A stretch of 64,000 nucleotides of DNA from Candidatus Saccharimonadota bacterium (GTDB lineage Bacteria > Patescibacteriota > Saccharimonadia > UBA4664), in NCBI GenBank assembly GCA_019352195.1, contig JACAFG010000001.1:66485-130484 (forward strand), read 5' to 3'. A program made the position numbers and the translations under genes. Shown here in pieces: positions 3,236 through 39,731 of this stretch (the stretch's first letter is position 1; the number at the start of each line of letters is the position of its first letter). The notes under the pieces are model-generated. The model did not search any database. It saw only the letters and a list, made by a program, of their open reading frames with translations, and was not told the DNA's origin.

Positions 3236-3312
3236 GGGCCATTAGCTCAGTTGGTTAGAGCAGGGGACTCTTAATCCCCGTGTCCTGGGTTCGAATCCCA
3301 GATGGCCCTCCA
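3236..3312 (+). tRNA. tRNA-Lys (anticodon CTT)
   Basis: Acceptor GGGCCAT/ATGGCCC, D-loop AGCTCAGTTGGTTAGAGC, anticodon stem GGGGA/TCCCC with loop CTCTTAA, T-loop GGTTCGAATCC, CCA end. 77 nt. Confidence 0.85.
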
Positions 3313-3548
3313 GAAATTATCTGCGAATGAACGGCTCTATAAAGCCATTCGTTCGTGCTCGTAATTGATAACCCACATGTTGGCTCGGAACAAGTATCCA
3401 TACCCAGCTAAGATACCCGAGTGATGCCAGTATGAGCCGAACAACTTACCGGCCAATATGTGGGGGATATACCCGTTTGTTAGCTCAGCATAAAAAAGCG
3501 AGCTAAAATGCTTGTAACAAGTCATGGTTACGCGAACGCACCATTTTA

Positions 3549-3962: not shown

Positions 3963-4040
3963 TTTCTTAACAGTCCCGACTCAACGTAGTTGATTAATTT
4001 CGGCTTGAGCAATATGATTTTGTAGTTCTCCAGCTTAAGG

Positions 4041-24377: not shown

Positions 24378-25435
24378 AACGCAATCTTCCCCAATTTCTG
24401 ACCACTCGACCAAGAATTACTCCAACCGTCAAACTAACAATTTCATACCTCGCCCTCCTCATGGCTTTAAGCCTGATATTGACGATACCGCTGTACCGAT
24501 CGTCTACCGGCGCCGCCGACCGTGGTCTGCGGAGCGAGCGATTGTACTTTGAGGGTGCTAATCCGTATTCCATAGGCCCCAACTATCAGCAGATTGAGCT
24601 AGGACAAGTTACCGGCTTCCATAAACACCTGCTCAATGAGCTCATTACTCTCAATCTCTTGGTGCTGCTGATTGGCGGTGGCCTAAGTTTTTACTTAGCT
24701 AGGCGAACGTTGTCGCCTATCGAGGCCGCCTTGGCTGCGCAAAGCCGCTTTGCTGCCGACGCCTCCCATGAACTTCGCACGCCCCTAACCGCTATGAAGA
24801 GCGAAATCGAAGTAAGCCTGCGCGATCCGCATCTACCGATTGCTGGTGCTAGGGAGCTCCTAAAATCTAATCTCGAAGAAGTTGCCAAGCTTGAAGCCTT
24901 GGCCGGCGGCTTACTGAGGCTCGCCCGACACGGAAATGAGCGCTTGCCGCTAAGCCCCGTTGATCTATCTGAAATATCGGCTAAGGCAATCAGTCGGCTA
25001 AGTGTAGCCGCCGAACAACAGCACGTCAGCATCAATATGGCGGATGTTTCGGGGACTGTTTTGGCTGATCCCGATGCGCTGCTCGAGCTAACGGTAATAT
25101 TGCTTGATAATGCCATTAAGTATTCATCTGCTGCTAGCGAAGTTAAGCTATATGCCAAGCGTCATGGCGCTATCATCGATTTCACCGTTAAAGACACGGG
25201 GACGGGTATTGCTGCGAGCGATTTGCCGCACATTTTTGACCGTTTCTACCGCGCCGATACATCACGCTCCAAAGTTACGCCTGGCTATGGGCTTGGGCTG
25301 TCCATTGCTGCGCGCATTGCAGAACTGCACGGCGCTAGCATTGATGCCACGAGCAAGCTGGGGGCAGGTTCGCACTTTACGATTCATTTGCGCGCGGCTG
25401 GAACGCAGCCCAAGGCACTGCCGGCCAAGGTTTAG
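24374..25435 (+). CDS. sensor histidine kinase (2 TM, HisKA plus HATPase_c)
   Basis: H-box AADASHELRTPLTAM. N-box LDNAIKYS. G1 DTGTGIA. G2 GYGLGLSIA. Start overlaps the stop of the response-regulator gene. Confidence 0.85.
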   Translation: MKRNLPQFLTTRPRITPTVKLTISYLALLMALSLILTIPLYRSSTGAADRGLRSERLYFEGANPYSIGPNYQQIELGQVTGFHKHLLNELITLNLLVLLIGGGLSFYLARRTLSPIEAALAAQSRFAADASHELRTPLTAMKSEIEVSLRDPHLPIAGARELLKSNLEEVAKLEALAGGLLRLARHGNERLPLSPVDLSEISAKAISRLSVAAEQQHVSINMADVSGTVLADPDALLELTVILLDNAIKYSSAASEVKLYAKRHGAIIDFTVKDTGTGIAASDLPHIFDRFYRADTSRSKVTPGYGLGLSIAARIAELHGASIDATSKLGAGSHFTIHLRAAGTQPKALPAKV

Positions 25436-25470
25436 CTCGAACTCAAACTACGCTATAATTAAGCGTAAGC

Positions 25471-27885
25471 ATGATTCAAACTGGCCTCACCAGCAAAGAC
25501 GCTGCCGCGCGGCAGCAAAAGTACGGCCGAAATGAAATCGTCTCAAACCGACGACTCCCGGGCGTAACCGCGTTTTTGAGCCGGTTCAAAAACCCGCTCG
25601 TCATCATCCTTATTCTCGCAGCGACGTTATCGGCGTTCGTTGGTGACAAAGTCAGTTTTGTCATCATTATCGTTATCGTGATAATTAGTATCACGCTTGA
25701 CTTTGTTAATACATACCGCAGTGAAGCAGCTGCTGACGCCCTCAAAGACAGGGTGCGCGTCCAGTCAGAAATTCTTCGCGACGGCGTATGGGTGAGCTTG
25801 CCCTTGGCTGAAATTGTCCCCGGGGACATTGTGAAACTGGCGGCCGGCAAAATAATTCCGGCCGATGGGCAAGTAGCCGAAGGCAAAGATCTGTATGCAA
25901 ACGAATCCTCCCTCACCGGGGAGTCGTTTCCGGTCGCCAAAGGTCCGAGCCTGGACCTGTATATGGGCTCAAGTATTATTTCGGGCGGAGGAACCATGCT
26001 GGTTACCGCAACGGGCAAATCAACCAAGTATGCGCACGTAGCTGCTGCCATTAGCGCTAGCTCTGGCCCCACCGAGTTCGATCGCGAAATTAGCCAGTTC
26101 AGCTTGCTCATTATCAAAATCACCACTGGCTTAGTGATATTTATTTTTGCTGCCAACGTCTATTTTCACCGCGGTTTTTTGGAGGCCCTGCTCTTTAGTG
26201 TCGCGCTCGCCGTTGGGCTGACGCCGGAGTTACTGCCACTGATTATTACTCTCAACCTCACTAAAGGTTCACTGGCCATGGCCAAGCATGGGGTCATTGT
26301 AAAGCGCCTGGCCTCCATCCAGAACTTTGGTTCCATGGACGTTCTTTGCACGGATAAAACGGGTACTCTCACCGAAGATCGGATTACCGTGGTTAAGTAC
26401 GTAGATGGTTATGGCGGCGTAAACGAGCATGTGCTTCTGAACGCGTATTTGGGGAGTATTTTTACGACTCGCTACGAGAGTCCATTGGACCGGGCAGTAC
26501 GTAACTTTCGCAAACTTGATGTCTCGGCCTATACCAAGCTGGACGAAGTGCCGTACGATTTTGAGCGCAAGCGTGAGAGCGTGGCCGTAGCTCAGGGCGC
26601 GCATGCCACCCTTATTACCAAAGGTGCTCCCGAAGAGATAATGAAAATTTGCCGCACCTACCACGATGGGCGTCCGTTTAGCGAAGTCGTAAAGCAGGTC
26701 ACGTCCCAATACAATGCCCTTTCGGCCGATGGTTTTAGGGTTTTGGCCGTGGCGAGCCGGGCACTGCCAAAACGCGATAGCTACGAGCCGGAGGATGAGA
26801 CAAAAATGGTGTTCGAAGGCTTTGTGGCCTATCTGGATCCCGCCAAAAAGAGCGTTCGCGGTACGCTAAACCAAATGACTGAATATGGTATTGAGGTAAA
26901 AATTGTCACCGGCGACAACGATCTAGTAACCAGTCGAATTGCCCAAGAAATCGATCTAACTGTGAAGGGCATCCTTACCGGTCTTCAGATTGAACGACTC
27001 AATGATCTTGAACTTCGCGAGGCGGCCGAACGTACTACGATTTTTGCGCGGGTGTCACCGGAGCAAAAGCTGCGAGTAATTCAGAGTCTGCAGGCAAGCG
27101 GTCACGTGGTAGGTTACATGGGGGACGGCATTAACGACGCTCCGGCGCTAAAAGCTGCCGATATAGGTATTTCAGTTAACAACGCCGTCGATGTTGCCAA
27201 GGATACGGCCGATCTGATTTTGCTACACAAAAGTCTGCACGACCTCATTGCGGGCGTTATTGAAGGCCGCCGCACGTTTGCCAACACGCTGAAGTACCTC
27301 ATGATGAGTTTGGGGTCAAACTTTGGCAACATGTTTTCGATGGCCGGCGGATCGCTTATTTTGCCATTCTTACCAATGAAAGCCACCCAAATCTTGCTGA
27401 CTAACTTGCTCTACGACACCTCGCAGTTTGCCCTTCCCATTGACAATGTCGACGTTGAAAGCCTCAAAAAACCGCGTAAATTAAACCTGCGCAGCCTTGA
27501 AAAAGCTATGCTTGTATTTGGTCCGCTTAGCTCAATTTTCGACTTTATAACCTTTGGCGCATTGTATTGGGGCTTTCACTTGAGTGAGTCGGGCTTTCAG
27601 ACCGGTTGGTTTTTGGAAAGTGCCGCCACGCAAACGCTCGTCGTGTATATTATTCGCACTCGCAAACTGCCGTTTATTGGCAGCCGGCCCAGCAGTTGGT
27701 TGGTAGTAAGTACCCTCACCACTGTGGCGGCCGCCTATATTATCGCGCTATCGCCAATCGGCCATTTCTTTGGCTTTTCGTATATTTCGCCGGAGGTGAT
27801 CGGTGTAATTGTACTGATCGTAGCCACTTACTTGGCGACAACTGAGCTCGTAAAACAGTGGTTCTATCGCCATGTTACGCTATGA
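25471..27885 (+). CDS. mgtA: P-type ATPase, MgtA-like (Mg2+-importing type IIIB)
   Basis: DKTGTLT phosphorylation site, TGES, GDGINDAPAL hinge. N-terminus LTSKDAAARQQKYGRNEI typical of MgtA. 804 aa. Confidence 0.75.
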   Translation: MIQTGLTSKDAAARQQKYGRNEIVSNRRLPGVTAFLSRFKNPLVIILILAATLSAFVGDKVSFVIIIVIVIISITLDFVNTYRSEAAADALKDRVRVQSEILRDGVWVSLPLAEIVPGDIVKLAAGKIIPADGQVAEGKDLYANESSLTGESFPVAKGPSLDLYMGSSIISGGGTMLVTATGKSTKYAHVAAAISASSGPTEFDREISQFSLLIIKITTGLVIFIFAANVYFHRGFLEALLFSVALAVGLTPELLPLIITLNLTKGSLAMAKHGVIVKRLASIQNFGSMDVLCTDKTGTLTEDRITVVKYVDGYGGVNEHVLLNAYLGSIFTTRYESPLDRAVRNFRKLDVSAYTKLDEVPYDFERKRESVAVAQGAHATLITKGAPEEIMKICRTYHDGRPFSEVVKQVTSQYNALSADGFRVLAVASRALPKRDSYEPEDETKMVFEGFVAYLDPAKKSVRGTLNQMTEYGIEVKIVTGDNDLVTSRIAQEIDLTVKGILTGLQIERLNDLELREAAERTTIFARVSPEQKLRVIQSLQASGHVVGYMGDGINDAPALKAADIGISVNNAVDVAKDTADLILLHKSLHDLIAGVIEGRRTFANTLKYLMMSLGSNFGNMFSMAGGSLILPFLPMKATQILLTNLLYDTSQFALPIDNVDVESLKKPRKLNLRSLEKAMLVFGPLSSIFDFITFGALYWGFHLSESGFQTGWFLESAATQTLVVYIIRTRKLPFIGSRPSSWLVVSTLTTVAAAYIIALSPIGHFFGFSYISPEVIGVIVLIVATYLATTELVKQWFYRHVTL

Positions 27886-27945
27886 CATAGTTAAGATAAC
27901 CAACGATAAGGCTCGATAAAGCGATCGGTTTTGTAGAATGCGTTA

Positions 27946-29346
27946 TTGGCTTACTCGTCATATACCGGCATCCTTAAAGTAATATTGAGGTTAAATGTGG
28001 CATTATCATTTCGGCGCAGTTACGTTGACCGTCGGGTTTTCACCGCCTTATCAATTTTGGCACTATTTTCTCTAAGTACGACGTTTGTGACAATTGGTGC
28101 TGTCACCAAAATGGTGAGCTCGCGCCAAGAAGGGCTAAATTATAGCAATGCTCGCACCACTTTGGGCGATTTGTTGACTGAGCTTAATGCGGCCGAGAGC
28201 GCCCAGCGAGGCTATTTGCTGGTCGAGGATAAAACCTATCTCGAGCCCTATAACATGGCCATAAAAGTAATTCCGGGGGATGTCACCACGCTTCAGGCTC
28301 AGCTCGCCGGAACCCCGTATAGTACCACCATGAGCACCATCTATCCGCTAGTAAATCAAAAACTCGCGGAGCTGGCATCAACGATTACCGCCAACGATAC
28401 GCAGGGGCACGATGCTGCCATAAGTATCGTGGCCGCGGCCGACGGGCAGTCCCGCATGTCGAAAATTCGAACAATCATCACTAGCATTCTCGACAACCTT
28501 AACGGCGAAGTATCGGCTGCGCGAGTGGAGGTAAATCAGTACGCCAGCTGGGCCCGCGATATTGGCTTGTTGGCCCTGGGCGGAACACTCGTTTTGGTGG
28601 TGGGGATTTACTTCTTGTTTGACCATGCGATTGAGGCTGAACGTGCTCTCGATCAAGCTAAAGATGAGTTTGTTTCGCTTGCGTCGCACCAGTTGCGAAC
28701 ACCTGCCACCGGTATCAAATCCATTTTATCAATGCTTGAACACGGCGATTTTGGCCCCCTGACAGATCGACAGCATAATGTTGTCAGTAAAGCCGTCCGA
28801 AGTAACGCCCGCGAACTCGCCATAATCGAAGAGCTCCTTAACGTTGCCAAGGCCGACGCCGGCCGTTTAGTTTTGAAGCCGGTTGAACTGGATTTGGGTA
28901 AGTTGGTAGAGCAGGTAGTGGGTGAGCAGCAGGCTGCCTACACGACGAAATATATTGCGCTTGGACTGCATCAGCCGAGCCACACGGTGAAATTGCTCGC
29001 TGACGAAGAAAAACTCTATATGGCCATTACGAACCTGGTCGACAATGCCCGCAAATATACGCCAGAAGGTGGCAGCGTTACCGTAACAATAGCCAACCAC
29101 CGTAATCATGTCTCTATCGAAGTGGCCGATAGTGGCATTGGTATCGATGAGCATGAGCTCGATCACATCTTCGATCGGTTCCAACGTTCGCGGATGGTGT
29201 TGGCAGGGACAATCGAAGGTACCGGTCTTGGTTTATACTTGGCTCGTCGCATTGCGGAGCTGCATCATGGTACGATAAACGTAGATTCCAAAAAAGATCA
29301 CGGCTCCAGATTCACAATGATTTTACCGAGGCGTCCTCAATCATGA
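27946..29346 (+). CDS. sensor histidine kinase with CHASE3-like periplasmic domain
   Basis: TM, then CHASE3-like region (AQRGYLLVEDKTYLEPYN), second TM, H-box LASHQLRTPATGI, HATPase_c (DNARKYT, DSGIGI, GTGLGLYLA). The exact start is uncertain; a GTG near 27996 is an alternative. Confidence 0.75.
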   Translation: MAYSSYTGILKVILRLNVALSFRRSYVDRRVFTALSILALFSLSTTFVTIGAVTKMVSSRQEGLNYSNARTTLGDLLTELNAAESAQRGYLLVEDKTYLEPYNMAIKVIPGDVTTLQAQLAGTPYSTTMSTIYPLVNQKLAELASTITANDTQGHDAAISIVAAADGQSRMSKIRTIITSILDNLNGEVSAARVEVNQYASWARDIGLLALGGTLVLVVGIYFLFDHAIEAERALDQAKDEFVSLASHQLRTPATGIKSILSMLEHGDFGPLTDRQHNVVSKAVRSNARELAIIEELLNVAKADAGRLVLKPVELDLGKLVEQVVGEQQAAYTTKYIALGLHQPSHTVKLLADEEKLYMAITNLVDNARKYTPEGGSVTVTIANHRNHVSIEVADSGIGIDEHELDHIFDRFQRSRMVLAGTIEGTGLGLYLARRIAELHHGTINVDSKKDHGSRFTMILPRRPQS

Positions 29347-29738
29347 CTGCTAAAACACTACCCAAAATCATGATCGTTGAAGATGACGATATTATTCGAG
29401 AAGTTTATACGCTCAAATTCGAGCTCGAAGGTTTTCCCGTCACTGCCGCCGAAAACGGTCAAATTGCACTCGAACGCGCGGCCAGCTTTGAACCCGATAT
29501 TATATTACTCGACATGATGATGCCGGTAATGGGCGGCCTCGACTTTATGCGCGCGTGGCGTGCTTTGCCAGAGCGCGCCGCCGAAGTTATTGTTTTTAGC
29601 AATATTTCTGCCCCCAATCAAATGAATGAAGTGCTTGCTCTTGGCGCCAGCGAATATTGGGTGAAGTCTGACTATACGCCCGATCGAGCAACTACTGCCA
29701 TCGTGGAGCGTTGGCAACGTCGCGATAACCAGAAATGA
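29343..29738 (+). CDS. single-domain response regulator (CheY-like receiver)
   Basis: IMIVEDDD…ILLDMMMP…VFSN. No output domain. Start overlaps the histidine-kinase stop. Confidence 0.8.
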   Translation: MTAKTLPKIMIVEDDDIIREVYTLKFELEGFPVTAAENGQIALERAASFEPDIILLDMMMPVMGGLDFMRAWRALPERAAEVIVFSNISAPNQMNEVLALGASEYWVKSDYTPDRATTAIVERWQRRDNQK

Positions 29739-30511
29739 AGCTCCTGGACGGACGCGAGGCGGCCGACTTTATCAAAGCTCGCCACGCAGGCGAGGTGAGG
29801 GGACTACCGCCGATGCGCCTCGCAATTGTGCGCCAAGGCGCCACCGCGGCCACCGACATGTACTTGCGTGTTAAGCAGCGCTACGGCGATGACATTGGTA
29901 TTGATGTCGACTTGTACACTGAAACTGGGGCAACGCTCTTAAAGCGGATTCATCAGCTCAACAGTGACGACAGTGTGATGGCTATTAATGTAGAATTACC
30001 GTTCACTGACGCCCCGGAGCTTACCAATGAGGCCTTGGCCGCGGTTACGCCCAGCAAAGACGTCGAAGGCTTTGCACCCGGATCGGAGTTTGAAGTGGTT
30101 ACACCTAAGGCCATAATGTGGCTGCTGGCGGCATACAACATCGACCTCAAGGCGCGGCGTATTGGCATCGTCGGACTGGGTAAATTAGTAGGAGCACCGT
30201 TGGCCGAGCGCCTCGAAGCCTCAGGCCACACCGTGATGCGCTGCGACGAGCATACGAAAGATTTAGCCGCCCAATTATCGGAATGCCCGGTAGTAATAAC
30301 TGCCACCGGACAGCCCGGACTCATCACTGCCAGCATGCTTGCGGATGGAGCTGTGGTGGTTGACGCGGGTGCCCCCAAGTCCGATTTAGCTGACGATGTC
30401 TTAGCGCGTCCAGATCTCACTCGCACGCCTAACCCGGGCGGTGTTGGACCCATGACGGTAGCTGCCTTGTTCGATAACGTGATTTTAGCCTGTCGCCGCG
30501 CTCGCAAATAA
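29735..30511 (+). CDS. folD: bifunctional methylenetetrahydrofolate dehydrogenase/cyclohydrolase FolD
   Basis: GGVGPMTVAAL signature, Rossmann GIVGLGKLVGAPLA, MKLLDG N-terminus. Confidence 0.85.
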   Translation: MKLLDGREAADFIKARHAGEVRGLPPMRLAIVRQGATAATDMYLRVKQRYGDDIGIDVDLYTETGATLLKRIHQLNSDDSVMAINVELPFTDAPELTNEALAAVTPSKDVEGFAPGSEFEVVTPKAIMWLLAAYNIDLKARRIGIVGLGKLVGAPLAERLEASGHTVMRCDEHTKDLAAQLSECPVVITATGQPGLITASMLADGAVVVDAGAPKSDLADDVLARPDLTRTPNPGGVGPMTVAALFDNVILACRRARK

Positions 30512-30572
30512 GGGAGTGCCGCCAAACGTGGCATCCATCACAACTAAATAGATGGATAGAAAAAGCCGCGAA

Positions 30573-30971
30573 TCAAGCGGCGTTGGGTGATTTCTTGCCT
30601 AAAAGAGTCTGTACGCGCTCAACTACTTCTTTGGGAGTAGATTCGGCTTTGACAATAAAATCATCGGCTGCCATTTTGTAGACGCGCGTGGCAGTTTCGG
30701 TGTCGCCCATATTGGTGAGCACAATCACCTTAAAAGGGTGACTAGTGGACGTCTGGCGCAAATGGCTCAGCACGTCAAACCCAGTTACTTCGGGCATCAT
30801 CAGGTCGAGAAGGACGATGTCTGGCTTAAAAGTATCAAACAACTCCAGGCCGCTCTGGCCGTCACCCGCCGTTTGGACGGCGTAGCCTTCGTGCTCAAAT
30901 TTGGCGCGGTACATTTCAACGATGGCTAAATCATCTTCAACAATAGCAATTTTTGTAGGTTGCTCGCTCAT
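30573..30971 (-). CDS. single-domain response regulator (CheY-like receiver)
   Basis: KIAIVEDD…IVLLDLMMP…VLTN…K. Confidence 0.8.
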   Translation of the reverse strand: MSEQPTKIAIVEDDLAIVEMYRAKFEHEGYAVQTAGDGQSGLELFDTFKPDIVLLDLMMPEVTGFDVLSHLRQTSTSHPFKVIVLTNMGDTETATRVYKMAADDFIVKAESTPKEVVERVQTLLGKKSPNAA

Positions 30972-31027
30972 TTCGCAATCTTACCCCAAAGATCAGGCGG
31001 TCGCAATTAAGTGGCGCCCCAATATGG

Positions 31028-31690
31028 CTACTTGACAGCAAGTTGCGGTAGCTCGAGGTCATAGATGGCGGCGAGCACAGCGTCGGCAGTTGGCTGCGGT
31101 CTCATCGGGCGACCAATGGTAACCTGAAACCCACGCCGGAGCCCGCTCGTCCATTGGATGCGCGCCGGAATAATACGCACCATCGGGTTTACTCCCAAGA
31201 CGGCCACGCCAACACGAGCCGGCGACTGGCGGGGCAGCGTGCGGCGGCCTTCGGGGAACATCACCACGGTCTGACCGCGGCCCAGGTACGCCCGGGCAGC
31301 TTCAATCCCATAGGGCAGCGTCTGCTCTTTTCGGGCAGGGAAGCTGCCAAAGCTAAGCAATGGCCAGCGCAGCCACAGCCGGGTAAACAGGCTGGCGTTG
31401 GCCATATAGCGAAATACGCCCAGATTTGGCCACAAGCTCATGGGTAGCGCGCCGCAAATTACAAATGGATCAGCGGCGCTCTGGTGGTTGGCGGCAATCA
31501 CGTAGTGATAGTTCTTATCCAGATCGCTAGGCAAGAGCTCGATTCGTCGGGCGCCCCGCATAACCAATGCCTCAACCCAGCGGGACGGCCAATACCAAAA
31601 ATGCTGATTAAACCGAATAAACCCCAGATACCGTGAGGAAGTAAGGGGGATGGGGGTTGGAAGCAGGCGCTGAGCGCGAATAGTCGTCAT
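31028..31690 (-). CDS. lysophospholipid (1-acyl-sn-glycerol-3-phosphate) acyltransferase family, PlsC/OlsA-like
   Basis: HX4D motif ANHQSAADPF and FPEGRRT motif. Confidence 0.7.
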   Translation of the reverse strand: MTTIRAQRLLPTPIPLTSSRYLGFIRFNQHFWYWPSRWVEALVMRGARRIELLPSDLDKNYHYVIAANHQSAADPFVICGALPMSLWPNLGVFRYMANASLFTRLWLRWPLLSFGSFPARKEQTLPYGIEAARAYLGRGQTVVMFPEGRRTLPRQSPARVGVAVLGVNPMVRIIPARIQWTSGLRRGFQVTIGRPMRPQPTADAVLAAIYDLELPQLAVK

Positions 31691-31745
31691 TTATCGTAGT
31701 TCTTATTCTTGATTAAAATATAACATAGTGTTATAGTTTAATCAA

Positions 31746-32513
31746 ATGTCAACTTTAAAACATCTTCTGCGCTACCACAAAATTCTGCTTCTAGGCTCAG
31801 ACAAATCATATAACGCAGCCCCGGCCGTGCGTCCGGACGATGATCGGGCCGCGCGCCAATTACACGCTAAAATTTATCGTGAACTTGGCTATGTCACCCC
31901 CGATGGGGTCAACCATCTTGGTCTCATGACGCCAGCAGCCGACCCCTACGGCCACAAAGCGGTCTATTTCGCTGTTTGGTCGTCCGCTAAAACTGCGTCC
32001 GCGCCCGTTGCCACGGGACGTATTATTGAGGCTGCTCCAGGTGACGATCACATGGCATTTCAAATGTACAACGAGCTCACGCTGTCGCCAGAAGCCGTCG
32101 CCACAATAGGAAGCTTCGACCCCAGCACGTGTGCCGAAGTTTCGGGTCTTGCTAAGCGTCGAGGCGAAAGTACGGTCGCTATTTTGCTGCTTTACCGCGC
32201 CATGTGGCAATATTCGATTGGACGACATCATAAACTGTGGCTGATGGCGGTAGATGAGCGACTGTTTGGCCGAATTCAACAGCTCTTCGGGCCTGCCTTT
32301 CAGGTTGCGGGCGAGCCAGTTTTTTTTCGCGGTCACACCGTAGTACCGGCTATGCTAAATTTGGAGACATCGATCGACAAACTCATACGGGCGAGTAAAA
32401 CGGGCTCGCCTTGGCAGCGCTTGGTGCGTGCTCGTTTAGCCGCATTTATGCTGCATGGACTACCAAACGATCTTCGCCGTACCCATCAGTCAAAAGCGAA
32501 AACTGAGGCTTAA
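31746..32513 (+). CDS. GNAT-fold N-acyltransferase, Acetyltransf_5 family (OlsB/FeeM-like), paralog of 15273..16055
   Basis: AARQLHAKIYRELGYVTPDGVNHLGLMTPAADPYGHKAVYFAVWSS…ATGRIIE matches the same R..Y..f..E.D.YD..a.H core. Divergent from the PlsC-like gene, with a 55-nt intergenic region. Confidence 0.5.
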   Translation: MSTLKHLLRYHKILLLGSDKSYNAAPAVRPDDDRAARQLHAKIYRELGYVTPDGVNHLGLMTPAADPYGHKAVYFAVWSSAKTASAPVATGRIIEAAPGDDHMAFQMYNELTLSPEAVATIGSFDPSTCAEVSGLAKRRGESTVAILLLYRAMWQYSIGRHHKLWLMAVDERLFGRIQQLFGPAFQVAGEPVFFRGHTVVPAMLNLETSIDKLIRASKTGSPWQRLVRARLAAFMLHGLPNDLRRTHQSKAKTEA

Positions 32514-32514
32514 T

Positions 32515-33222
32515 ATGAACCGACTCACGAAAGCACTGTGGAGCTTGTATGCTAAATCGTACGACGGCCTGTTGTATTTTTGGCCGTATAAAAACTTGCT
32601 CGGCCTCATGGCGGCGCGATCTCATCCAGCGGCCGGTGAGGTAATGCTCGATCTCGGCTGCGGCACTGGTAACTTACTAAAAATCCTCATCGAGGCAAGC
32701 CCTAACGCTCATTTCATTGGTCTTGATGTCTCTAGCGGCATGCTCGAAGTGGCTCGACGTAAACTCGCAGTACAGATAAAAACCGGTACGGTAGAACTTA
32801 CCGAAGGCGAGATTATGACCTACCTCCGACAACAACCAAACGCCTCGTTTGATGTCATTGCCTCCATGAATGTGCTTTACACTATTGCCGACCAAACAGG
32901 CTTGTGGTACGAGCTCATGAGGGTACTCAGGCCTGGCGGCCGTATTATTATTACCGCCTCGGTGCGGCCGGGCAGCGGCGCTATTATCGCCGAGCATTTC
33001 GCTCATGCTACGTTGTGGCCTTTGTTGCGACTACGGCTCCTAGCCGTATTCATTATCGATGCCATCATTAACGTACTGGGCCACACCGGCCACTTTGCCT
33101 TTAGCGACGAAGCCACTCTGGAGGTTGCCGTTGAGGCAGCCGGCGGCCACATGCACGATGCGGTAACCTGCTACGGGGGCTCTGAAAAAGGCGTTAATAC
33201 GCTTTTTACCGTCTCAAGTTAA
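32515..33222 (+). CDS. class I SAM-dependent methyltransferase
   Basis: Motif I VMLDLGCGTGNLLKIL, post-I D, motif II/III VLRPGGRIIIT. ATG at 32515 overlaps the TAA of the upstream gene. Confidence 0.7.
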   Translation: MNRLTKALWSLYAKSYDGLLYFWPYKNLLGLMAARSHPAAGEVMLDLGCGTGNLLKILIEASPNAHFIGLDVSSGMLEVARRKLAVQIKTGTVELTEGEIMTYLRQQPNASFDVIASMNVLYTIADQTGLWYELMRVLRPGGRIIITASVRPGSGAIIAEHFAHATLWPLLRLRLLAVFIIDAIINVLGHTGHFAFSDEATLEVAVEAAGGHMHDAVTCYGGSEKGVNTLFTVSS

Positions 33223-33246
33223 GCTTAAGCGTGTTAAAATAAGCCC

Positions 33247-35382
33247 ATGACTGTTGAGTTGGTGGGCGTAGTTTTGGTAGCTGCGAGTGCTATTTTATTA
33301 GGGCTCGTGACGCTGCTTACCAACATGCATCGCCGTCCCAACCGTATCTTTGCGATCCTAAGCGGCTTGGCGTGCTGCTTTGTGGTCGTTAATTATCTGG
33401 TCGATCACACCGACAGCCACGCTTTGTTGTTAGCTCGCGCGACGTTTTTTATTGGTTGTTTTATGGCCTGGTCCATGTTTGCTTTTATGGCTAATTTTCC
33501 TCGGCGATTTTGGCCGGGACGCGCCGAATGGGTCGCTCTTATTTTGGCCACTATCACGGCCCTGTTTACGCTGACGCCATACTTTATACCTGGAATTGTT
33601 GTTGAGGCGGGCAAAAATACGGTTCAGGAAGGCCCGCTCTACGGCGTGTTTATTATTTACGCAGCGATCATTTTTATTGCCACCGGCGCGGCAATTGTCA
33701 CGGCCTTAGACAAAACTCGTGCCCTCGAGAGGCGTCGTGTTCGTTTGGTAGCAGTAGCGCTGGGCGCAAGCGCCGTACTGCTTATGGCCACCAACGTGTT
33801 GATTCCGCTTGTGGTGGGTTCGGATGCCTCGGCTAGTTGGGGACCGCTGTCACTGGTATTGTTCATTTCAGTAAGTACGTACGCTATTATCCGCCAGCGG
33901 TTGTTTGATGTGCGTTTGCTCGTTACACGTTCCATCGTTTACCTGCTCCTGCTCATTACCCTCACGGTTATATTCGTAGGGTCCGCTTTTGCCGCTTCGC
34001 ACTTCTTGTTCAATGACCAATCCGGCGGTTTGAATCAAACGCTGGTTTATGCAGCTTTGAGCATTATTCTAGCGTTTGCTTTCCAGCCACTGCGGCGTGG
34101 TTTTGAACATCTGACCAATCGCATTTTTTACCATGATCAATACTCGAGCCGGATGGTTCTCGACAGCATTTCGCGCATTTTGGTGTCGGAATTGCACCTC
34201 GACCGGCTAATGTCGCGTAGTCTTGATACGCTCTGCCGAGAGATGCGCTTGGAGTTTGGGCAGCTCATCATTTTCAACGAAGACCGGGTTTACCGCATTG
34301 AGCACTTTGGACCATTACCCAAACGGCTCATGGTGGTACCAGAGCTGCGTCGCTTGGGCACAGGGCAAGTCGTTGCCGATGAACTTTCGGGTGGCGAACG
34401 TAAAGGTTTGCTCGACGATCATGGTATTCGCATGTCACTTGGGCTCAAAACGAGCGGTGAGTTTGTCGGGTACCTATTGCTTGGCGATAAACTTTCGGGC
34501 GACAGCTACAACAAAGAAGAGCTCGAGCTCATTGCTATCATCGGCAAACAACTGGCTGTAGGTGTGGCTAACGCCATGTCGTACGCCGAAATCGAGGCTT
34601 TTAACCGCACCCTCCAAGACCGCGTCGACCACGCCACCTCTCGTCTGCGCGTGGCCAACCGCCACCTCAAAGAACTTGATAAAACCAAAGACGAATTTAT
34701 TTCCATGGCGTCTCATCAGCTCCGTACGCCGCTAACCACCATCAAAGGCTACCTCAGCATGATGACCGAAGGCGATGCCGGGAAGCTAACGGCGACTCAG
34801 CGCGAATTTGCCGGCTATGCCTACGATGCCTCAGAGCGTATGGTAAATCTCATCTCCGATTTGCTTAACGTGTCGCGACTTGAAGCCGGGCGCTTTATGA
34901 TTCAGACCAAACCCACCGATATTACCGCTATGGTGGCCGACGAAGTTCGGCAGCTTCAGCAGCACGCCGATACTAAAGGCCTCGAAATGAAATTCATCCC
35001 GCCACCCGAAATTTTTCCGCCAATTGAGATTGACGAGAATAAAACCCGTCAGGTAATTATGAATTTTATCGACAATGCTATTTACTACACCAGGACCGGC
35101 GGCAGCGTTACTATTAGTTTGAAGCGCGTGGGCGAGAATGCTCGTCTAGAAGTTACCGATACCGGCATCGGTGTGCCGACTATCGCTAAGAAAAAACTCT
35201 TCAGCAAATTTTTCCGCGCCGAAAACGCCCAGGGTATGCGTCCAGATGGGACTGGTCTGGGGCTCTACTTAGCGCGGCGCGTAATTGCTGATCAAAATGG
35301 TACAATCATTTTTAAGAGCACTGAAGGCGAAGGTTCAACCTTCGGATTCGAACTGCCGTTTACAGCAATAAGCAATAAGTGA
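33247..35382 (+). CDS. multi-sensor histidine kinase: 7-TM N-domain, GAF-like domain, HisKA, HATPase_c
   Basis: About 7 TM in the first 300 aa. GAF-like region (GEFVGYLLLGDKLSG). H-box MASHQLRTPLTTIKGY. N/G boxes DNAIYYT, DTGIGV, GTGLGLYLA. Confidence 0.8.
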   Translation: MTVELVGVVLVAASAILLGLVTLLTNMHRRPNRIFAILSGLACCFVVVNYLVDHTDSHALLLARATFFIGCFMAWSMFAFMANFPRRFWPGRAEWVALILATITALFTLTPYFIPGIVVEAGKNTVQEGPLYGVFIIYAAIIFIATGAAIVTALDKTRALERRRVRLVAVALGASAVLLMATNVLIPLVVGSDASASWGPLSLVLFISVSTYAIIRQRLFDVRLLVTRSIVYLLLLITLTVIFVGSAFAASHFLFNDQSGGLNQTLVYAALSIILAFAFQPLRRGFEHLTNRIFYHDQYSSRMVLDSISRILVSELHLDRLMSRSLDTLCREMRLEFGQLIIFNEDRVYRIEHFGPLPKRLMVVPELRRLGTGQVVADELSGGERKGLLDDHGIRMSLGLKTSGEFVGYLLLGDKLSGDSYNKEELELIAIIGKQLAVGVANAMSYAEIEAFNRTLQDRVDHATSRLRVANRHLKELDKTKDEFISMASHQLRTPLTTIKGYLSMMTEGDAGKLTATQREFAGYAYDASERMVNLISDLLNVSRLEAGRFMIQTKPTDITAMVADEVRQLQQHADTKGLEMKFIPPPEIFPPIEIDENKTRQVIMNFIDNAIYYTRTGGSVTISLKRVGENARLEVTDTGIGVPTIAKKKLFSKFFRAENAQGMRPDGTGLGLYLARRVIADQNGTIIFKSTEGEGSTFGFELPFTAISNK

Positions 35383-35801
35383 GAAAGTATAAGACAATGG
35401 CTCAATCTGCCTCTGCTGCGCACGACAAAATCATTTTGCTGGCCGAAGATGATCCGTTTATTTCACGAATGTACCAAGTAAAGCTTTCTGGTGCCGGTTT
35501 TACCGTTATTACCAAAACCAATGGCCGTGAAGCCTATGAGGCCATTAAGTCGGACAAGCCGAGTCTCATAATGCTCGATATCAATATGCCAGAGCTATCC
35601 GGGTTGGAAGTGCTATCGGCATTAGCGAGCGATAGCTTCGACTTTAGCACCACGCCTACCATTGTCCTCACAAATTCATCGAGCATGGAAGACCGCAAAA
35701 AAGCCGAGCAGTATGGCGCCGAATACCTGGTAAAAGCCGAGCTCACGCCTCGCCAGGTGCTCGATTTAATCGATGACAAGCTGGGTATCGGCCATGCTTA
35801 G
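35379..35801 (+). CDS. single-domain response regulator (CheY-like receiver)
   Basis: ILLAEDD…IMLDINMP…VLTN…K. Start overlaps the histidine-kinase stop. Confidence 0.8.
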   Translation: MRKYKTMAQSASAAHDKIILLAEDDPFISRMYQVKLSGAGFTVITKTNGREAYEAIKSDKPSLIMLDINMPELSGLEVLSALASDSFDFSTTPTIVLTNSSSMEDRKKAEQYGAEYLVKAELTPRQVLDLIDDKLGIGHA

Positions 35802-35973
35802 TGCCGGGCTTTTCGGCATGGCCTGCTTTATAATTGTTTTTCTTGGACTGCGCGGCTTCGAATATTTTTACCATCACCTGCGCCACACACCCGACTGGTC
35901 GCCTCATTGGGGCAGCTGGGTCTTTGCGGTCCTGGCGGGCCTTTATGTTTTTCTGACCAATATTGGCCGGTAA
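35794..35973 (+). CDS. small membrane protein (about 60 aa, 2 TM), possible
   Basis: ATG at 35794 overlaps the response-regulator stop. Two hydrophobic helices. Confidence 0.25.
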   Translation: MLSAGLFGMACFIIVFLGLRGFEYFYHHLRHTPDWSPHWGSWVFAVLAGLYVFLTNIGR

Positions 35974-35999
35974 ATAAGTAGCTTGAAGGCAATGGAATG

Positions 36000-37130
36000 C
36001 TAAGGTAGTCCAATTGTGGTCCTTATCCGGCTGAGCGTGTAAGTATAACCAGGTAGCTGATACTCGCCGCTGGATGTGGTTACGGCCGTCCTATAACCAG
36101 CTGCCGCCACTATTTTTACCGTATCCGAATCGTAGTTTCCGTACGGATAGGAGAAATCATAAATTGAATGGCCAATTTCGTGTTCAATCGCCGTTTTTGA
36201 GTCGGCAATCTCGTGCCGCTGCTCATCGACTGGTAGGGTTGCTAGCTCAAGGTGATTAAGTGAGTGGCCACCAATGGTGATCAGACCGCTGGCATCTAGC
36301 AGGCGAATTTGATTCCACGAGAGGTACGCATCACCGCAGCCCGCCGCCGGTTGCATGGGGTCGTTATAGCGCCGCCCAGCTCCAATGCACCAGCGGCTTT
36401 CAGTACCGCCATTGATAATGTAGTACGTCGCTTTCATGTTGTGAGCCTTGAGCATATCAAACGCCTGCATCTGGTTCTCAAAACCATCGTCAAAAGTGAG
36501 TACCACCGGTTTGGCCGGCAGCGGGCCTCCCAAGGTGAGCGCCGCATAGACCGTTTTGAGATCAATCACGGTGTAATTATGCGCCTGCAGATAATCCAGT
36601 TCATCGTTGAAGTCGGCGGGAGTGTAGTGATAAATGACAATCGGAATAAACAGTCCGCTCGGCGATACGCTCGAAAATGGCGTTGGGGTTGGCACGGTAG
36701 CTACCACCGCTCCGGAACCTAGTAACGATAATTGGCCGCGCCAGTTACCGAGCTGACCTTCAAGCTGCTTAATGTTGGTCTCAGCCGCGATGTATTGGCC
36801 ACTGGCAGCTTGCAGCGATATATTAGAGACCTTGCCCGCCAACATTCCCGGCGCGACCAAGCTGGCATCATTACGCGCCTGCAGCGAATTAAAACTATGG
36901 ACATCGTTTTGGAGCTTGGCTAAATCTTGTCGTAGTTTCAGCGGGTAACCCGTGTAAATGCCGGTACCCGTTGGCGCAGGCCAGTTGGTAACGACAGCGT
37001 AAATGGCCGCGGTAACAATAAGCAATAAGCCCAAAAAAATGAGTCGGCGTTGGGGGAAGAGTTTCGCCTTTGCCTGAGGCAGGGCTTTCGCCTTCAATTT
37101 GCGTTTAGCTTTTGATTTAGACCTGGTCAT
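36000..37130 (-). CDS. polysaccharide deacetylase (CE4/NodB homology domain) with N-terminal Lys-rich tail and TM anchor
   Basis: VVLTFDDGF (TFDDG motif 1), HSLNH. N-terminus KSKAKRKLKAKALPQAKAK then TM. Confidence 0.75.
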   Translation of the reverse strand: MTRSKSKAKRKLKAKALPQAKAKLFPQRRLIFLGLLLIVTAAIYAVVTNWPAPTGTGIYTGYPLKLRQDLAKLQNDVHSFNSLQARNDASLVAPGMLAGKVSNISLQAASGQYIAAETNIKQLEGQLGNWRGQLSLLGSGAVVATVPTPTPFSSVSPSGLFIPIVIYHYTPADFNDELDYLQAHNYTVIDLKTVYAALTLGGPLPAKPVVLTFDDGFENQMQAFDMLKAHNMKATYYIINGGTESRWCIGAGRRYNDPMQPAAGCGDAYLSWNQIRLLDASGLITIGGHSLNHLELATLPVDEQRHEIADSKTAIEHEIGHSIYDFSYPYGNYDSDTVKIVAAAGYRTAVTTSSGEYQLPGYTYTLSRIRTTIGLP

Positions 37131-37153
37131 TAGAACCGATTATAAGGTTGGCC

Positions 37154-37651
37154 TTAGGAGGTTGGCAATTCCACCTTGGCCTGATGACGGCGATATTCAA
37201 TGATCGTAAGCCAGACTACTAAGCCATCTATAACCGTCAGCAGCCCATCGAATACCCAATGGCCTTCGGTAAAAATTCGGTATATTTGGTACAGCATAAA
37301 CAAAATCAAAACTACGATTGCCGCCGGATACAAGGCGTATTTACGGCTTAACAGAGCTATCACAAGCCCTACCTTTATGACGCCGTGAAGCAATAAATAA
37401 GCGGCGGTATACATTTGGATTCCCGGCGTAAAACTATGCCCCAGTGAGGTCACCGCATGCGTTAACCAGTCGTGATCTACTACCAGATCATTTTGGCCAA
37501 TAGTTATGATCCAGGCATGCAGCGACGCGCTTGGGACGAGCAGTAAGGCTAGGCCGCCAATCAGCTCCAGAGCACCGTCAATACCCTTAAAAACCAGAAC
37601 AATCTTAAACCAGCGGTCAAGCCATGTTTGTGAAATTGGGTGATCGTGCAT
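37154..37651 (-). CDS. DUF2127-like membrane protein (4 TM)
   Basis: WFKIVLVFKGIDGALELIGGLALLL… topology and size match the DUF2127 family. Confidence 0.5.
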   Translation of the reverse strand: MHDHPISQTWLDRWFKIVLVFKGIDGALELIGGLALLLVPSASLHAWIITIGQNDLVVDHDWLTHAVTSLGHSFTPGIQMYTAAYLLLHGVIKVGLVIALLSRKYALYPAAIVVLILFMLYQIYRIFTEGHWVFDGLLTVIDGLVVWLTIIEYRRHQAKVELPTS

Positions 37652-37660
37652 AGATTAAGC

Positions 37661-38377
37661 CTACAGTGAATCAACAAATCGCGCGAGCGTCGTACGCAAT
37701 TTTGGCGCCGACCACAAGCCTACGATAAACGGCGCCAAGATAGTGAAGTGGCTTTGGAAGCGATAATTTAGCATATCGACGCGGCCACCATGCTCCTTAA
37801 GTGCTTTAGCGAGTAATACCGAAACATGAGGGCGCACAATAGCATCCATCTGGCCGTGTACGAGCAGCGCCGGTACGGGCAGCTGATTGATGAGTTTCGT
37901 CGTCCGCCAGCTTTGTTCGCCCGTTTCTAATATCGGCCGAAGTGACCGAGCCGGATCAAAATCGTAGCCTCCAGCGAGGCCTATAAAACCGTCGATTGCC
38001 CCTGCTTCGCCTATGGCCCTCAGGTACGTGGAATCAAACGCCACCGCGCCTGCAATTTGACCACCCGCCGAGTGTCCCATGGCAACGAGGCGCTTGGGTT
38101 TGAGCCGATGTTTAGCAAATGCCACCGCCAAAGCCGCGTCTTCGGCAAACACGGGCCACACTACTTCGGGATAAAGCCGGTAATTTGGTATTACTACGGT
38201 GTAGCCGAGCCGTACTAAAGCCCTGCCCACATAATGGTAAGATTTTTTATCACCGCGCTGCCACGACCCACCGTGCCAAAATATGATGACCGTCTCGTTA
38301 CTGGCTTTACTCGGTGCATAAACATCGGCCCGTTGACGGGGATGGGGGCCGTAAGCTTGGTTAGTTGTAATCCGCAT
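37661..38377 (-). CDS. alpha/beta hydrolase (carboxylesterase/lipase-like)
   Basis: Oxyanion HGGSW, nucleophile elbow GHSAGG. 238 aa. Confidence 0.75.
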   Translation of the reverse strand: MRITTNQAYGPHPRQRADVYAPSKASNETVIIFWHGGSWQRGDKKSYHYVGRALVRLGYTVVIPNYRLYPEVVWPVFAEDAALAVAFAKHRLKPKRLVAMGHSAGGQIAGAVAFDSTYLRAIGEAGAIDGFIGLAGGYDFDPARSLRPILETGEQSWRTTKLINQLPVPALLVHGQMDAIVRPHVSVLLAKALKEHGGRVDMLNYRFQSHFTILAPFIVGLWSAPKLRTTLARFVDSL

Positions 38378-38654
38378 CTATGTATTTTATCGCTATCTCA
38401 AAACAAAATCGAGTGACCTACGTTGGATTGGGTAAACTTCTGATACATTCCCATTTCAGGCGAGCTCTCCCGCTCCTGGGTTGCGCCGTCTCAGGCTATT
38501 AAGAGCAACCAATCCTTATTTACATATGATGCGATTAACTTGCTTGTCAGCTCATACTGTAGGGTGATGTTAGGGCTTCAGTTTCACCATAACTTCGTAT
38601 AAGCCGCCTCTCAACTATTCTTTGTAAGCTTGCTTTGTAACTAGGGGACCCAAC

Positions 38655-38852
38655 ATGAAAACCACCGATCACCACTTAGCTGCTCTTGAACGTTTAAGTA
38701 AATATCCACAACTCATAATTAATGCCGGCAAATCTACGCCTGCCAAAGCACGCCGGTTATACGTCCATCAGATAGCGTTTTTGGCCAACATCTACGGCGT
38801 TACGGCCACTCAGCTTGAACAGCGGCTTAGCGCTCGTCGTCAATTTATTTAG
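38655..38852 (+). CDS. small hypothetical protein (65 aa)
   Basis: AGGGGA SD 7 nt before ATG 38655. Confidence 0.35.
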   Translation: MKTTDHHLAALERLSKYPQLIINAGKSTPAKARRLYVHQIAFLANIYGVTATQLEQRLSARRQFI

Positions 38853-38881
38853 GCTGCTAATTATTACATGAGGAGACCAAC

Positions 38882-38974
38882 TATGAATCATGCAACTTCC
38901 AAATCGCGCCTGCCTTACAAAATGCGAATGCGACAGCGCTGGCAGCACAAGCACGCCAAGCACCTCGGTAACTA
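38882..38974 (+). CDS. very basic small protein (30 aa), candidate
   Basis: GAGGAG SD 9 nt upstream of the ATG. MNHATSKSRLPYKMRMRQRWQHKHAKHLGN. It is too short for the ORF track. Confidence 0.3.
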
Positions 38975-39053
38975 GCTAATTTCGTTTACGGTACGAGGTA
39001 ATATCAAAGTCATGTCTCAGTTTCGTCTCAACTAAGTACGCTAATATGAGGTC

Positions 39054-39731
39054 ATGAGAGTTTTAATCATCGAAGACGAACACAAGATTGCGGCTGCGCT
39101 CAAGCGCGGCCTCGACCGCGAAGGCTACGCCACCGACCTAGCTTACAACTCGGATGACGGTCTCGATGCAGCCTTAAGCGGCGATTACGAGCTCATTGTG
39201 CTCGATCGCATGCTCCCAGGTTCACTCGAAGGCCTCGAGGTTTGCCAGCAGCTGCGTACTAACAAAATTCATACGCCAATTATTATGCTCACCGCCAAAG
39301 ATAACATCAACGACCGTGTAGCAGGACTGAATGCAGGCGCCGACGACTATTTGGTAAAACCGTTTGCCTTCGAAGAACTGGTCGCACGTATGCGCGCCCT
39401 TATGCGTCGGCCGGGTGAGGCTTTAACGACTGTGTTGACAGCCGGCGATCTCACACTTAACACCACCACCTACGAGGTTCGCCGCGACGGTAAACTTATC
39501 ACCCTATCCAATAAAGAATTTACCCTGCTGCACTACCTTATGCGTCACCAAAACCAAGTCTTATCCAAAAATAACATCATCGCTCACGTCTGGGATTTTG
39601 ACGCCGACATTTTAGACAATACTGTCGAGGTCTACATCGGATACTTGCGTAACAAAATTGACAAGCCGTTTAAGTCTCCCAGTCTTATCCATACCATTCG
39701 TGGGTTCGGCTATCGACTCGGAGCCGAATAA
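39054..39731 (+). CDS. OmpR-family response regulator (paralog of 23700..24377)
   Basis: MRVLIIEDEHKIAAALKRGL…, near-colinear with the first OmpR-type response regulator, including the VEVYIGYLRNKID…IHTIRGFGY C-terminus. Confidence 0.85.
   Translation: MRVLIIEDEHKIAAALKRGLDREGYATDLAYNSDDGLDAALSGDYELIVLDRMLPGSLEGLEVCQQLRTNKIHTPIIMLTAKDNINDRVAGLNAGADDYLVKPFAFEELVARMRALMRRPGEALTTVLTAGDLTLNTTTYEVRRDGKLITLSNKEFTLLHYLMRHQNQVLSKNNIIAHVWDFDADILDNTVEVYIGYLRNKIDKPFKSPSLIHTIRGFGYRLGAE

Follow-up and report, generated by a model that had tools for sequence, protein, structure and literature searches.

Three adjacent genes in a 64,000-nucleotide stretch of a Candidatus Saccharimonadota genome (assembly GCA_019352195.1, contig JACAFG010000001.1, positions 66,485 to 130,484; the whole stretch is hereafter called the window) encode a PlsC-family acyltransferase (open reading frame (ORF) A), a putative N-acyl (amino acid) synthase with the FeeM/LuxI GNAT fold (ORF B) and a class I S-adenosylmethionine (SAM)-dependent methyltransferase (MT). 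These three genes and the seven-transmembrane (7TM) domain of the histidine kinase encoded by the next gene appear to form one variant of a polymorphic cassette in a conserved two-component locus of Saccharimonadia. In the reading that we tentatively favour, at slightly short of an even chance, the enzymes would make a tailored N-acyl amino compound that would be detected by the cognate 7TM kinase; both the chemistry and the relation of product to ligand are what we infer.

Enzyme set and sensor domain across related loci

Relatives of B were collected by a word-based protein search, which found 6, and by a search of 1.84 billion cluster representatives with a B profile, which returned 507 at E ≤ 1e-3 and 102 at E ≤ 1e-30. 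The comparison covers 33 related loci (L001 to L033), 29 retrieved via relatives of B and 4 (L030 to L033) via kinase relatives chosen irrespective of B. One genome scan gave 8 loci and one metagenome scan gave 1 partial locus. The genes in the loci were typed by phmmer and by hidden Markov models (HMMs) made from the window proteins.

The kinase consists of an N-terminal HisKA_7TM region, a GAF-like middle region and the HisKA and HATPase domains, and in the window it is accompanied by two stand-alone receiver-domain response regulators, RRup and RRdown. Its sensor region recurs in no fewer than 120 clusters of orthologues, each about 720 aa long, most without an organism label; 10 of the 12 labelled clusters bear the names Saccharibacteria, Saccharimonadia or Patescibacteria, and the other two those of Nanoarchaeia and Mucilaginibacter. 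Across the 29 B loci, where the contig reaches, RRup on the minus strand is followed by B and then by the 7TM kinase, both on the plus strand, with the exception of L012, in which RRup was undetected. Wherever the retrieved sequence is long enough, an orthologue of the 7TM kinase (430-860 bits) follows B, and the layout holds also for distant relatives of B without A and MT. An RRdown orthologue follows the kinase in L001, L003, L009, L012, L013, L016, L032 and L033, that is, not in all loci.

The divergent arrangement of A against B and MT (A<>B-MT) recurs in about 14 independent Saccharimonadia lineages, between which B shares only 33-43% identity. This recurrence at low B identity, together with the B-MT fusion proteins described below, indicates that the arrangement is not due to chance. 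In about 14 lineages, A separates RRup from B, and its orthologues occupy the same position in 19 of the 29 B loci and in L033. A is missing from the locus in L018, L022, L026, L030 and L032; in the first three of these, which form a distant subgroup, RRup is directly divergent from B. The gene after B encodes MT in most loci and a ThiF-family adenylating enzyme in its place in L009, L012 and L018, and no extra gene follows B in L019, L022 and L026, where B itself carries a membrane module. As a side observation, the 8.9-kb contig of L011 (DATLJN010000054.1) bears the metagenome-assembled genome label 'Magnetospirillaceae bacterium', yet it contains the block FolD - RRup - A - B that is typical of Saccharimonadia and is probably a mis-binned contig.

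No B gene was detectable upstream of the four kinase homologues picked irrespective of B, and other enzymes are encoded there. In L033, the minus strand encodes RRup and A; next come a 377-aa protein with four transmembrane (TM) helices and a weak GNAT match (Acetyltransf_9, E 0.016) and then the kinase, A thus being retained beside a non-B enzyme. In L032, where the alternative cassette lies at 145-4991, the minus strand encodes a receiver and an aminotransferase of class I, the best NCBIfam match of which, GntC/aspartate aminotransferase, is below cutoff; next come a 509-aa protein, an Rv1355c-type ThiF protein and an Acg-family nitroreductase, ahead of the kinase. The 509-aa protein has no family match and is putatively adenylate-forming from its TSGSTGEP motif alone. 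ThiF and nitroreductase domains are paired in the uncharacterised Rv1355c family. In L031, a 247-aa protein of no assigned family and a ThiF protein precede the kinase. L030 (6121-12320) contains two 7TM kinase paralogues in tandem, with a 274-aa protein of no assigned family ahead of one and a 326-aa methyltransferase ahead of the other, which suggests that the whole enzyme-plus-sensor unit was duplicated. The 274-aa protein of L030 and the 247-aa protein of L031 were not counted as relatives of B, despite LTRFA and EISRWA motifs reminiscent of LuxI; both were undetected by the B profile, hhalign (probability 0.1), Pfam and NCBIfam.

For the analysis of co-variation, the kinase alignment was split into the 7TM domain (aa 1-225), the linker plus GAF region (226-470) and the kinase core (471-711). 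Among pairs with at least 60% kinase-core identity, the 7TM identity is 29-53% when the loci carry the same enzyme set and 20-28% when the sets differ, and the two ranges do not overlap. After regression on kinase and GAF identity, 0 of 5000 permutations reached the observed gap between same-set and different-set pairs, p-values here being indicative only, as the pairs are non-independent and come from just 20 kinases. In the 15 B loci compared, the identity of the 7TM domain rises with that of B (Spearman 0.53, or 0.45 as a partial correlation controlled for kinase identity) and is not correlated with that of the kinase (Spearman 0.16; partial 0.08). Variation in the 7TM domain goes with the genes in the upstream slot and not with its own kinase backbone.

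A mosaic formed by L013 and L032 stands apart from these pairwise statistics. The two kinases are 90% identical in the kinase core, 74% in the GAF region and 25% in the 7TM domain, and BLASTP alignment showed that the identity changes abruptly where TM7 ends. The slot of L013 holds A divergent to B and a methyltransferase with an additional membrane segment, and that of L032 the aminotransferase divergent to the 509-aa protein, ThiF and nitroreductase. In the blastn comparison, the loci are 75-80% identical up to the start of RRup and again from about kinase codon 278, from where similarity runs through RRdown and a deacetylase gene, with no alignment in between. A falls inside the replaced block, with the aminotransferase in its stead between these flanks. 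The enzyme set and the sensor domain have been exchanged as one cassette between otherwise near-identical loci.

The same co-variation bears on a distinctly unlikely alternative, in which the kinase senses an external cue (host contact or envelope state), the receivers control enzymes that remodel envelope lipids, and the 7TM domain docks these enzymes. Protein-protein control of adjacent enzymes is plausible for response regulators without DNA-binding domains, the membrane modules of B and MT could touch the 7TM domain, and RRup is apparently co-transcribed with A. The enzymes found in the slot are, however, chemically very different (GNAT, putative adenylate-forming enzyme, ThiF plus nitroreductase, aminotransferase), which makes a shared docking mode or remodelling role less likely, and the known neighbours of a synthase and a multi-TM kinase (LuxM/LuxN, CqsA/CqsS, PhcB/PhcS, Agr) are signal-receptor pairs.

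Families and fusions of the three enzymes

ORF B is identical (100%) to NCBI protein HJC99_00650. Its sole NCBIfam match is to TIGR03694, the model of exosortase-associated (PEP-CTERM) N-acyl amino acid synthases, which is matched partially (residues 141-214) with 29.1 bits against a cutoff of 111.95; the FeeM (PF21926), Acetyltransf_5 (PF13444) and OlsB models were not matched by the window protein. Searching the PDB by sequence, whether with B, with A or with the profile of 80 B relatives, yielded no useful match, and the fold search alone worked. The AlphaFold model of B, built on the 80-sequence alignment (pLDDT 92.7, pTM 0.90), has FeeM 2g0b as its best PDB match in Foldseek (E 3.6e-8, TM 0.77 normalised on FeeM, probability 1.00), followed by the acyl-homoserine lactone (AHL) synthases BjaI, LasI and TofI at ranks 5-16.

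Weak matches among the 80 relatives point in the same direction: TIGR03694 is matched by 68 (best 2.9e-13), FeeM PF21926 by 32 (best 1e-8), Acetyltransf_5 PF13444 by 14 (best 3.8e-4) and the OlsB models by just 3-4 (best ~3e-3), and LuxI PF00765 by 0 of 80 at E ≤ 0.1. D66, R92 and E131 are invariant in the alignment, and E131 opens the motif E-V-S-G-L-A-K (131-137; family form E-V/I-S-G/A-L-A/V-K). Judged by these profiles and the modelled fold, B appears to be a new branch of the FeeM/N-acyl amino acid synthase (NAS)/OlsB/LuxI GNAT group; it is closest to the N-acyl amino acid synthases, yet a member of no family by curated cutoffs. The first-pass annotation of this DNA, made from the sequence alone, had called B an Acetyltransf_5 protein, of which the FeeM/LuxI GNAT fold and the weak links of relatives to FeeM, NAS and OlsB hold, and the direct Pfam match does not. 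The counter-case named there combines clustering with LuxI-type synthases or other non-lipid GNATs with a PlsC-like gene that is the only plsC of the genome; on its first half, B groups with FeeM first and with LuxI second, so that it is not a non-lipid GNAT.

MT matches the generic class I SAM models Methyltransf_31, 12, 11 and 25 of Pfam (E 1e-20 to 1e-18), contains the SAM motif LDLGCGTGN and has a hydrophobic helix close to its C-terminus. The best NCBIfam models are likewise generic (CpaM, UbiE, ArsM, BioC), and the Legionella-type PmtA model was matched with 31.6 bits against a cutoff of 390. The ORF list starts MT at 32455; the true start is most likely the ATG at 32515, to the equivalent of which the homologues also start. 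This ATG lies one base past the TAA stop of B (32511-32513) and is preceded by GAGG at 32505-32508. These three features indicate that MT is translationally coupled to B, as the first-pass annotation had proposed. In L006 (3199-4190), the MT gene following B is broken up into two ORFs that overlap (170 and 161 aa), which may reflect a frameshift, a pseudogene or an assembly error.

The domains of B and MT occur in single proteins (P0011, P0043, P0073 and a protein of locus L016). Many relatives of B, those of L019, L022 and L026 among them, carry a conserved membrane module of 3-4 helices with the motif APYAYV as a C-terminal fusion, and the MTs of L010, L013, L014 and L015 carry an N-terminal three-helix membrane extension weakly similar to this module (domain E ~1e-5). 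The B-MT and membrane-module fusions show that B and MT are functionally linked, and the fusions of the module to both proteins, with the C-terminal helix of MT, point to joint action of B, MT and the membrane module at the membrane.

The fold search with MT, for which the structure model was built on a 6-sequence alignment, was non-specific: a phosphatidylethanolamine (PE) N-methyltransferase appears at rank 31, behind natural-product methyltransferases. These matches touch on another explanation, to which little probability is given, namely that of a variable secondary-metabolite locus for an antimicrobial or host-directed lipoamino acid, with the kinase serving producer sensing or immunity. 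FeeM-type N-acyl amino acid antibiotics have been recovered from environmental DNA and provide the analogy. FeeM is the nearest known structure to B, the tailoring enzymes of the slot are typical of natural products (the MTs like MitM, RebM and CysG, ThiF, nitroreductase), and the locus is polymorphic among close relatives. Against this, the window cassette contains no transporter or resistance gene, the co-variation is tight with the sensor domain and not with an exporter, and the locus is conserved class-wide and not sporadic.

ORF A is the PlsC-family gene divergent to the N-acyltransferase that had been recognised at first pass by its HX4D and FPEGRR motifs, and both its family and its orientation were recovered: PF01553 (Acyltransferase) was matched at E 9.6e-12 with 45.3 bits (cutoff 23), the motifs H69-QSAA-D74 and F145-PEGRR150 are present in the translation, and A and B lie 55 bp apart on opposite strands. 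The PlsC model TIGR00530 was matched with 45.3 bits, below its cutoff of 102.95, and no OlsA-specific model was among the NCBIfam output for A. A second PF01553-like ORF was found neither in the window nor in any related locus retrieved (10-kb flanks).

From these families the first-pass annotation had derived an ornithine-lipid-like module of OlsB, OlsA and OlsG, and had seen in the three genes exactly the set of a known pathway. The three domain assignments and the link between B and MT stand, and no family-specific model is reached: profile searches for PF13444, OlsB and PmtA-type families gave no PF13444 or OlsB match for B and generic models for MT. OlsG has been characterised in Singulisphaera only, from an olsH-olsG-olsI operon encoding also the GH3-like ligase OlsH and the alpha/beta hydrolase OlsI (PMC12493201). 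Because OlsG works with OlsH and OlsI, and not with OlsB and OlsA, the triad is a construct that corresponds to no known cluster.

The aminolipid model as such, that of a phosphorus-free structural membrane lipid, makes chemical sense and is judged unlikely. B would act like OlsB/GlsB, A like OlsA/GlsA and MT as an N-methyltransferase, and the two-component system would regulate them or be incidental. The combination of a GNAT N-acyltransferase with a PlsC-type O-acyltransferase follows the olsBA/glsBA logic (PMC12971839), the A<>B pairing is kept in about 14 lineages, B and MT bear membrane modules, the PE N-methyltransferase is among the structural matches of MT, and an organism without fatty acid synthesis might build simple lipids from scavenged ones. 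On the other hand, the OlsB, PF13444, PlsC and PmtA models were missed or matched far under their cutoffs, the characterised partners of OlsG are others, A is missing from the five loci named above, and MT is missing or replaced in many. Acyloxyacyl lipids moreover require a 3-hydroxy fatty acyl chain, which would be hard to obtain without fatty acid synthesis, and the wholesale swap of enzymes and sensor domain between near-identical flanks is unexpected for a housekeeping or bulk lipid. The alternative mentioned at first pass, a FeeM-type N-acyl amino acid or autoinducer-like signal that is then methylated, fits better. The most economical guess at the chemistry is N-acylation by a FeeM/OlsB-like GNAT, tailoring by MT and possibly a second, PlsC-type acylation.

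Operon organisation and neighbouring genes

The genes of the window locus form two divergent operons, A-RRup and B-MT-kinase-RRdown (Table 1). RRup lies 56 bp beyond A on the same strand and is probably co-transcribed with it; a terminator-like hairpin is present at 30565-30581, where RRup ends. In the other operon, one base separates the B stop from the MT start and 24 bp the MT stop from the kinase start, and the kinase end and the RRdown start overlap by 4 bp.

Table 1. Features of the cassette and its two-component locus, in window coordinates.
Feature	Position	Strand	Size or evidence
ORF A, PlsC/AGPAT-superfamily acyltransferase	31028..31690	-	220 aa
ORF B, FeeM/LuxI-fold GNAT, putative N-acyl (amino acid) synthase	31746..32513	+	255 aa
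MT, class I SAM-dependent methyltransferase	32515..33222	+	235 aa
7TM sensor domain of the histidine kinase, ~aa 1-215	33247..33900	+	PF16927 HisKA_7TM, E 8.5e-10
7TM-GAF-HisKA-HATPase histidine kinase, whole	33247..35382	+	711 aa, Pfam
RRdown, stand-alone receiver-domain response regulator	35379..35801	+	140 aa
RRup, stand-alone receiver-domain response regulator	30573..30971	-	132 aa, PF00072 E 7e-25
Near-perfect palindrome between A and B	31709..31745	.	37 bp, TTGATTAAAATATAACA-TAG-TGTTATAGTTTAATCAA

The gap between A and B is 80% AT and is mostly taken up by the palindrome, the arms of which match at 16 of 17 positions around a 3-nt spacer. Promoter-like hexamers lie within it in mirror image, at 31709-31737 on the plus strand and at 31745-31717 on the minus strand. 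The sequence of the palindrome is not conserved in 16 related loci, and for this reason it is not claimed as an operator.

A 66-aa ORF with two hydrophobic segments and the motif HLRHTPDWSPHWGSW follows RRdown at 35773-35973 (+). A near-identical motif occurs in a 61-aa ORF at the equivalent position of L032, and in L001 and L003 this place is taken by ORFs of 60 and 63 aa; the small ORF belongs to the conserved flank, outside the variable block. Further downstream on the minus strand are a polysaccharide deacetylase (36000-37130, named from the PF01522 match of its counterparts in related loci), a putative membrane protein of the DUF2127 family (37154-37651, named from the L003 orthologue) and an alpha/beta-hydrolase of the BD-FAE/Abhydrolase_3 type in the Pfam scan (37661-38377). 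The deacetylase and DUF2127 genes are kept beside the kinase operon in several relatives, and the hydrolase at 37661-38377, if an esterase, could free fatty acids.

Four two-component systems are found in about 17 kb of this reduced genome (window 23700-40801): an OmpR-type response regulator with a histidine kinase (23700-25435), a putative CHASE3 histidine kinase with a receiver (27946-29738; CHASE3 from the Pfam match of the L001 orthologue), the 7TM kinase with its two receivers, and a second OmpR-type response regulator with a histidine kinase (39054-40801).

Candidate product and comparison with known systems

Beyond the folds, fusions, synteny and co-variation, everything in the following pathway is inferred, which applies to the substrate, the methylation site, the role of A and the identity of the product with the kinase ligand. 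B would move a scavenged fatty acyl chain to an amine, likeliest that of an amino acid, giving a lipoamino acid at the membrane, and the coupled MT would tailor it. A might add or transfer a second acyl group, or recycle a lyso-lipid. The tailored lipid would then be detected by the cognate 7TM domain of the kinase, which would signal via the stand-alone receivers RRup and RRdown. The compound could be directed at other cells, as in quorum or kin sensing, or at the host, or could act in the membrane of the producer itself.

The alternation of MT and ThiF in one slot points to the free carboxylate of the product as a possible shared target. Masking of this group by MT is attractive, if speculative: MT would methyl-esterify it, and ThiF would adenylate or cyclise it. 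TcdA, a ThiF-family enzyme, acts in this way on N-carbamoyl-threonine. As for the acyl chains, the soil and oral Saccharibacteria studied apparently lack fatty acid synthesis and are believed to depend on lipids from outside (PMC6031116, PMC10939385), so that the chains would have to be derived from the host.

Several observations weigh against a signal made by these enzymes and perceived by this kinase. B has no Pfam match even at E ≤ 0.1 and reaches no curated family cutoff, and its E-x-S-G/A-L-A-K motif differs from the E-x-S-R of LuxI. The fold search with MT cannot separate N-, O- and C-methylation. No acyl-donor gene (acyl carrier protein, acyl-CoA or acyl-ACP synthetase) was found among the larger window ORFs scanned, and RRup and RRdown are without an output domain, having no DNA-binding domain. 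The co-variation, besides the dependence among its kinase pairs, would also be expected if the 7TM domain physically docks the enzymes or if the whole block is a recombination hot spot, and adjacency alone is weak evidence because Saccharibacterial genomes are strongly syntenic. Finally, the divergence of A follows that of the kinase core (Spearman 0.64) and not that of B (0.08), and A may lie outside the functional unit of B and MT. A is bound less tightly to the unit than B and MT, since its divergence tracks the kinase core, though it falls inside the block replaced between L013 and L032 and is kept beside the non-B enzyme of L033.

In a very improbable account, less likely again than that of a secondary metabolite, the genes are unrelated neighbours: A would be a housekeeping lysophosphatidate acyltransferase that rebuilds scavenged lipids, and B and MT would be unrelated to it and held in place by synteny. 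The lack of another PF01553-like ORF in the window or the retrieved loci and the tracking of the kinase-core backbone by A are in line with it. It is contradicted by the B-MT fusion proteins and the membrane-module fusions, by the swap of A for an aminotransferase between flanks that are 75-80% identical in DNA, by the score of A against TIGR00530 (45 bits, cutoff 103), and by A being the most divergent protein of the block, with a mean identity of 29% against 61% for the kinase core.

Returning to the favoured reading of a tailored N-acyl amino compound, the locus is a concrete candidate in which a small enzyme set should turn scavenged acyl chains into a tailored lipoamino compound and is hard-wired to a membrane sensor kinase, the sensing domain of which changes along with the enzymes. 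Saccharibacteria are ultra-small and host-dependent, those in culture being obligate epibionts, and little is known of how they sense their hosts or one another. Should the product prove to be the kinase ligand, the Candidate Phyla Radiation (CPR) would have in this locus a signal-receptor system that diversifies, and the FeeM/LuxI-like enzymes would gain a new branch with new tailoring partners, methyltransferase or ThiF. Even as a membrane lipid, the product would stand for a novel route to aminolipids, in a lineage believed to be without lipid synthesis.

Among known enzymes, B resembles FeeM and NAS in its GNAT fold (best match), in the weak HMM similarity among relatives and in the strand glutamate of E-x-S. 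It differs in scoring below both cutoffs, in about 60 extra residues that form N- and C-terminal helices, and in occurring in Saccharimonadia, linked with a 7TM kinase as well as with MT, ThiF or membrane modules. The OlsB/OlsA and GlsB/GlsA systems with OlsG share the GNAT-type N-acyltransferase beside a PlsC-superfamily acyltransferase, with a SAM methyltransferase at hand; here, however, no family-specific model is reached, A and MT are dispensable across relatives, and the organism is apparently without fatty acid synthesis. Similarity to the LuxI AHL synthases (PF00765) is by fold only, with neither a PF00765 match nor E-x-S-R in B.

A complete quorum-sensing pair in CPR bacteria has already been published as an in-silico prediction. 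In 2020, Bernard et al. surveyed CPR and DPANN genomes for quorum-sensing genes and listed 18 pairs of a LuxI homologue and a sensory kinase, two of them in Saccharibacteria, with the proteins OGL33891.1 and HBH77738.1 (PMC7567580, Table S4). One Taylorbacteria locus also has a PlsC-family HdtS homologue nearby (PMC7567580). The idea and the phylum are shared with the present locus. The proteins of that survey were found via PF00765/LuxI seeds, the family matched by none of the 80 B relatives, and fusions, the alternation of MT with ThiF and sensor-domain co-variation are not described there (PMC7567580). A literature search on Saccharibacteria with N-acyl amino acid synthases, and on such synthases with histidine kinases, found no earlier account of the B family, nor of its MT and membrane-module fusions, the MT/ThiF alternation, the PlsC-like partner or the enzyme-sensor co-variation.

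A synthase adjoining a polytopic sensor kinase is the rule for known lipid-like bacterial signals, as in LuxM/LuxN, CqsA/CqsS, LqsA/LqsS/LqsR, PhcB/PhcS/PhcR and RpfF/RpfC. The present locus likewise has the putative synthase in an operon with a kinase bearing a polytopic membrane sensor; it further recalls PhcB, a methyltransferase that makes the signal, and the Lqs system, the regulator of which is a receiver protein without a DNA-binding domain. It differs in its enzyme families, in the GAF region between the 7TM domain and the kinase and in belonging to an obligate epibiont, and its ligand is putative.

A parallel for the exchange of the cassette is the agr system of Staphylococcus, in which AgrB/AgrD and the sensor domain of AgrC are hypervariable. 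In both cases, biosynthetic genes and an N-terminal membrane sensor vary as a block, and the cytoplasmic kinase part and the flanks are conserved. In contrast to agr, the signal here would be a lipid or small molecule and not a peptide, and the variation is seen across species and lineages of metagenome-assembled genomes and not among demonstrated specificity groups within one species. We regard it as a doubtful but real possibility that Saccharimonadia possess agr-like allelic types, made up of hypervariable lipid-signal genes and a matching 7TM domain, which would use, in the present variant, a methylated and possibly doubly acylated N-acyl amino acid for lineage-specific self or kin recognition or for host-directed communication. 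Such a system would be the first of its kind defined for the CPR, with signals made from host-derived fatty acids.

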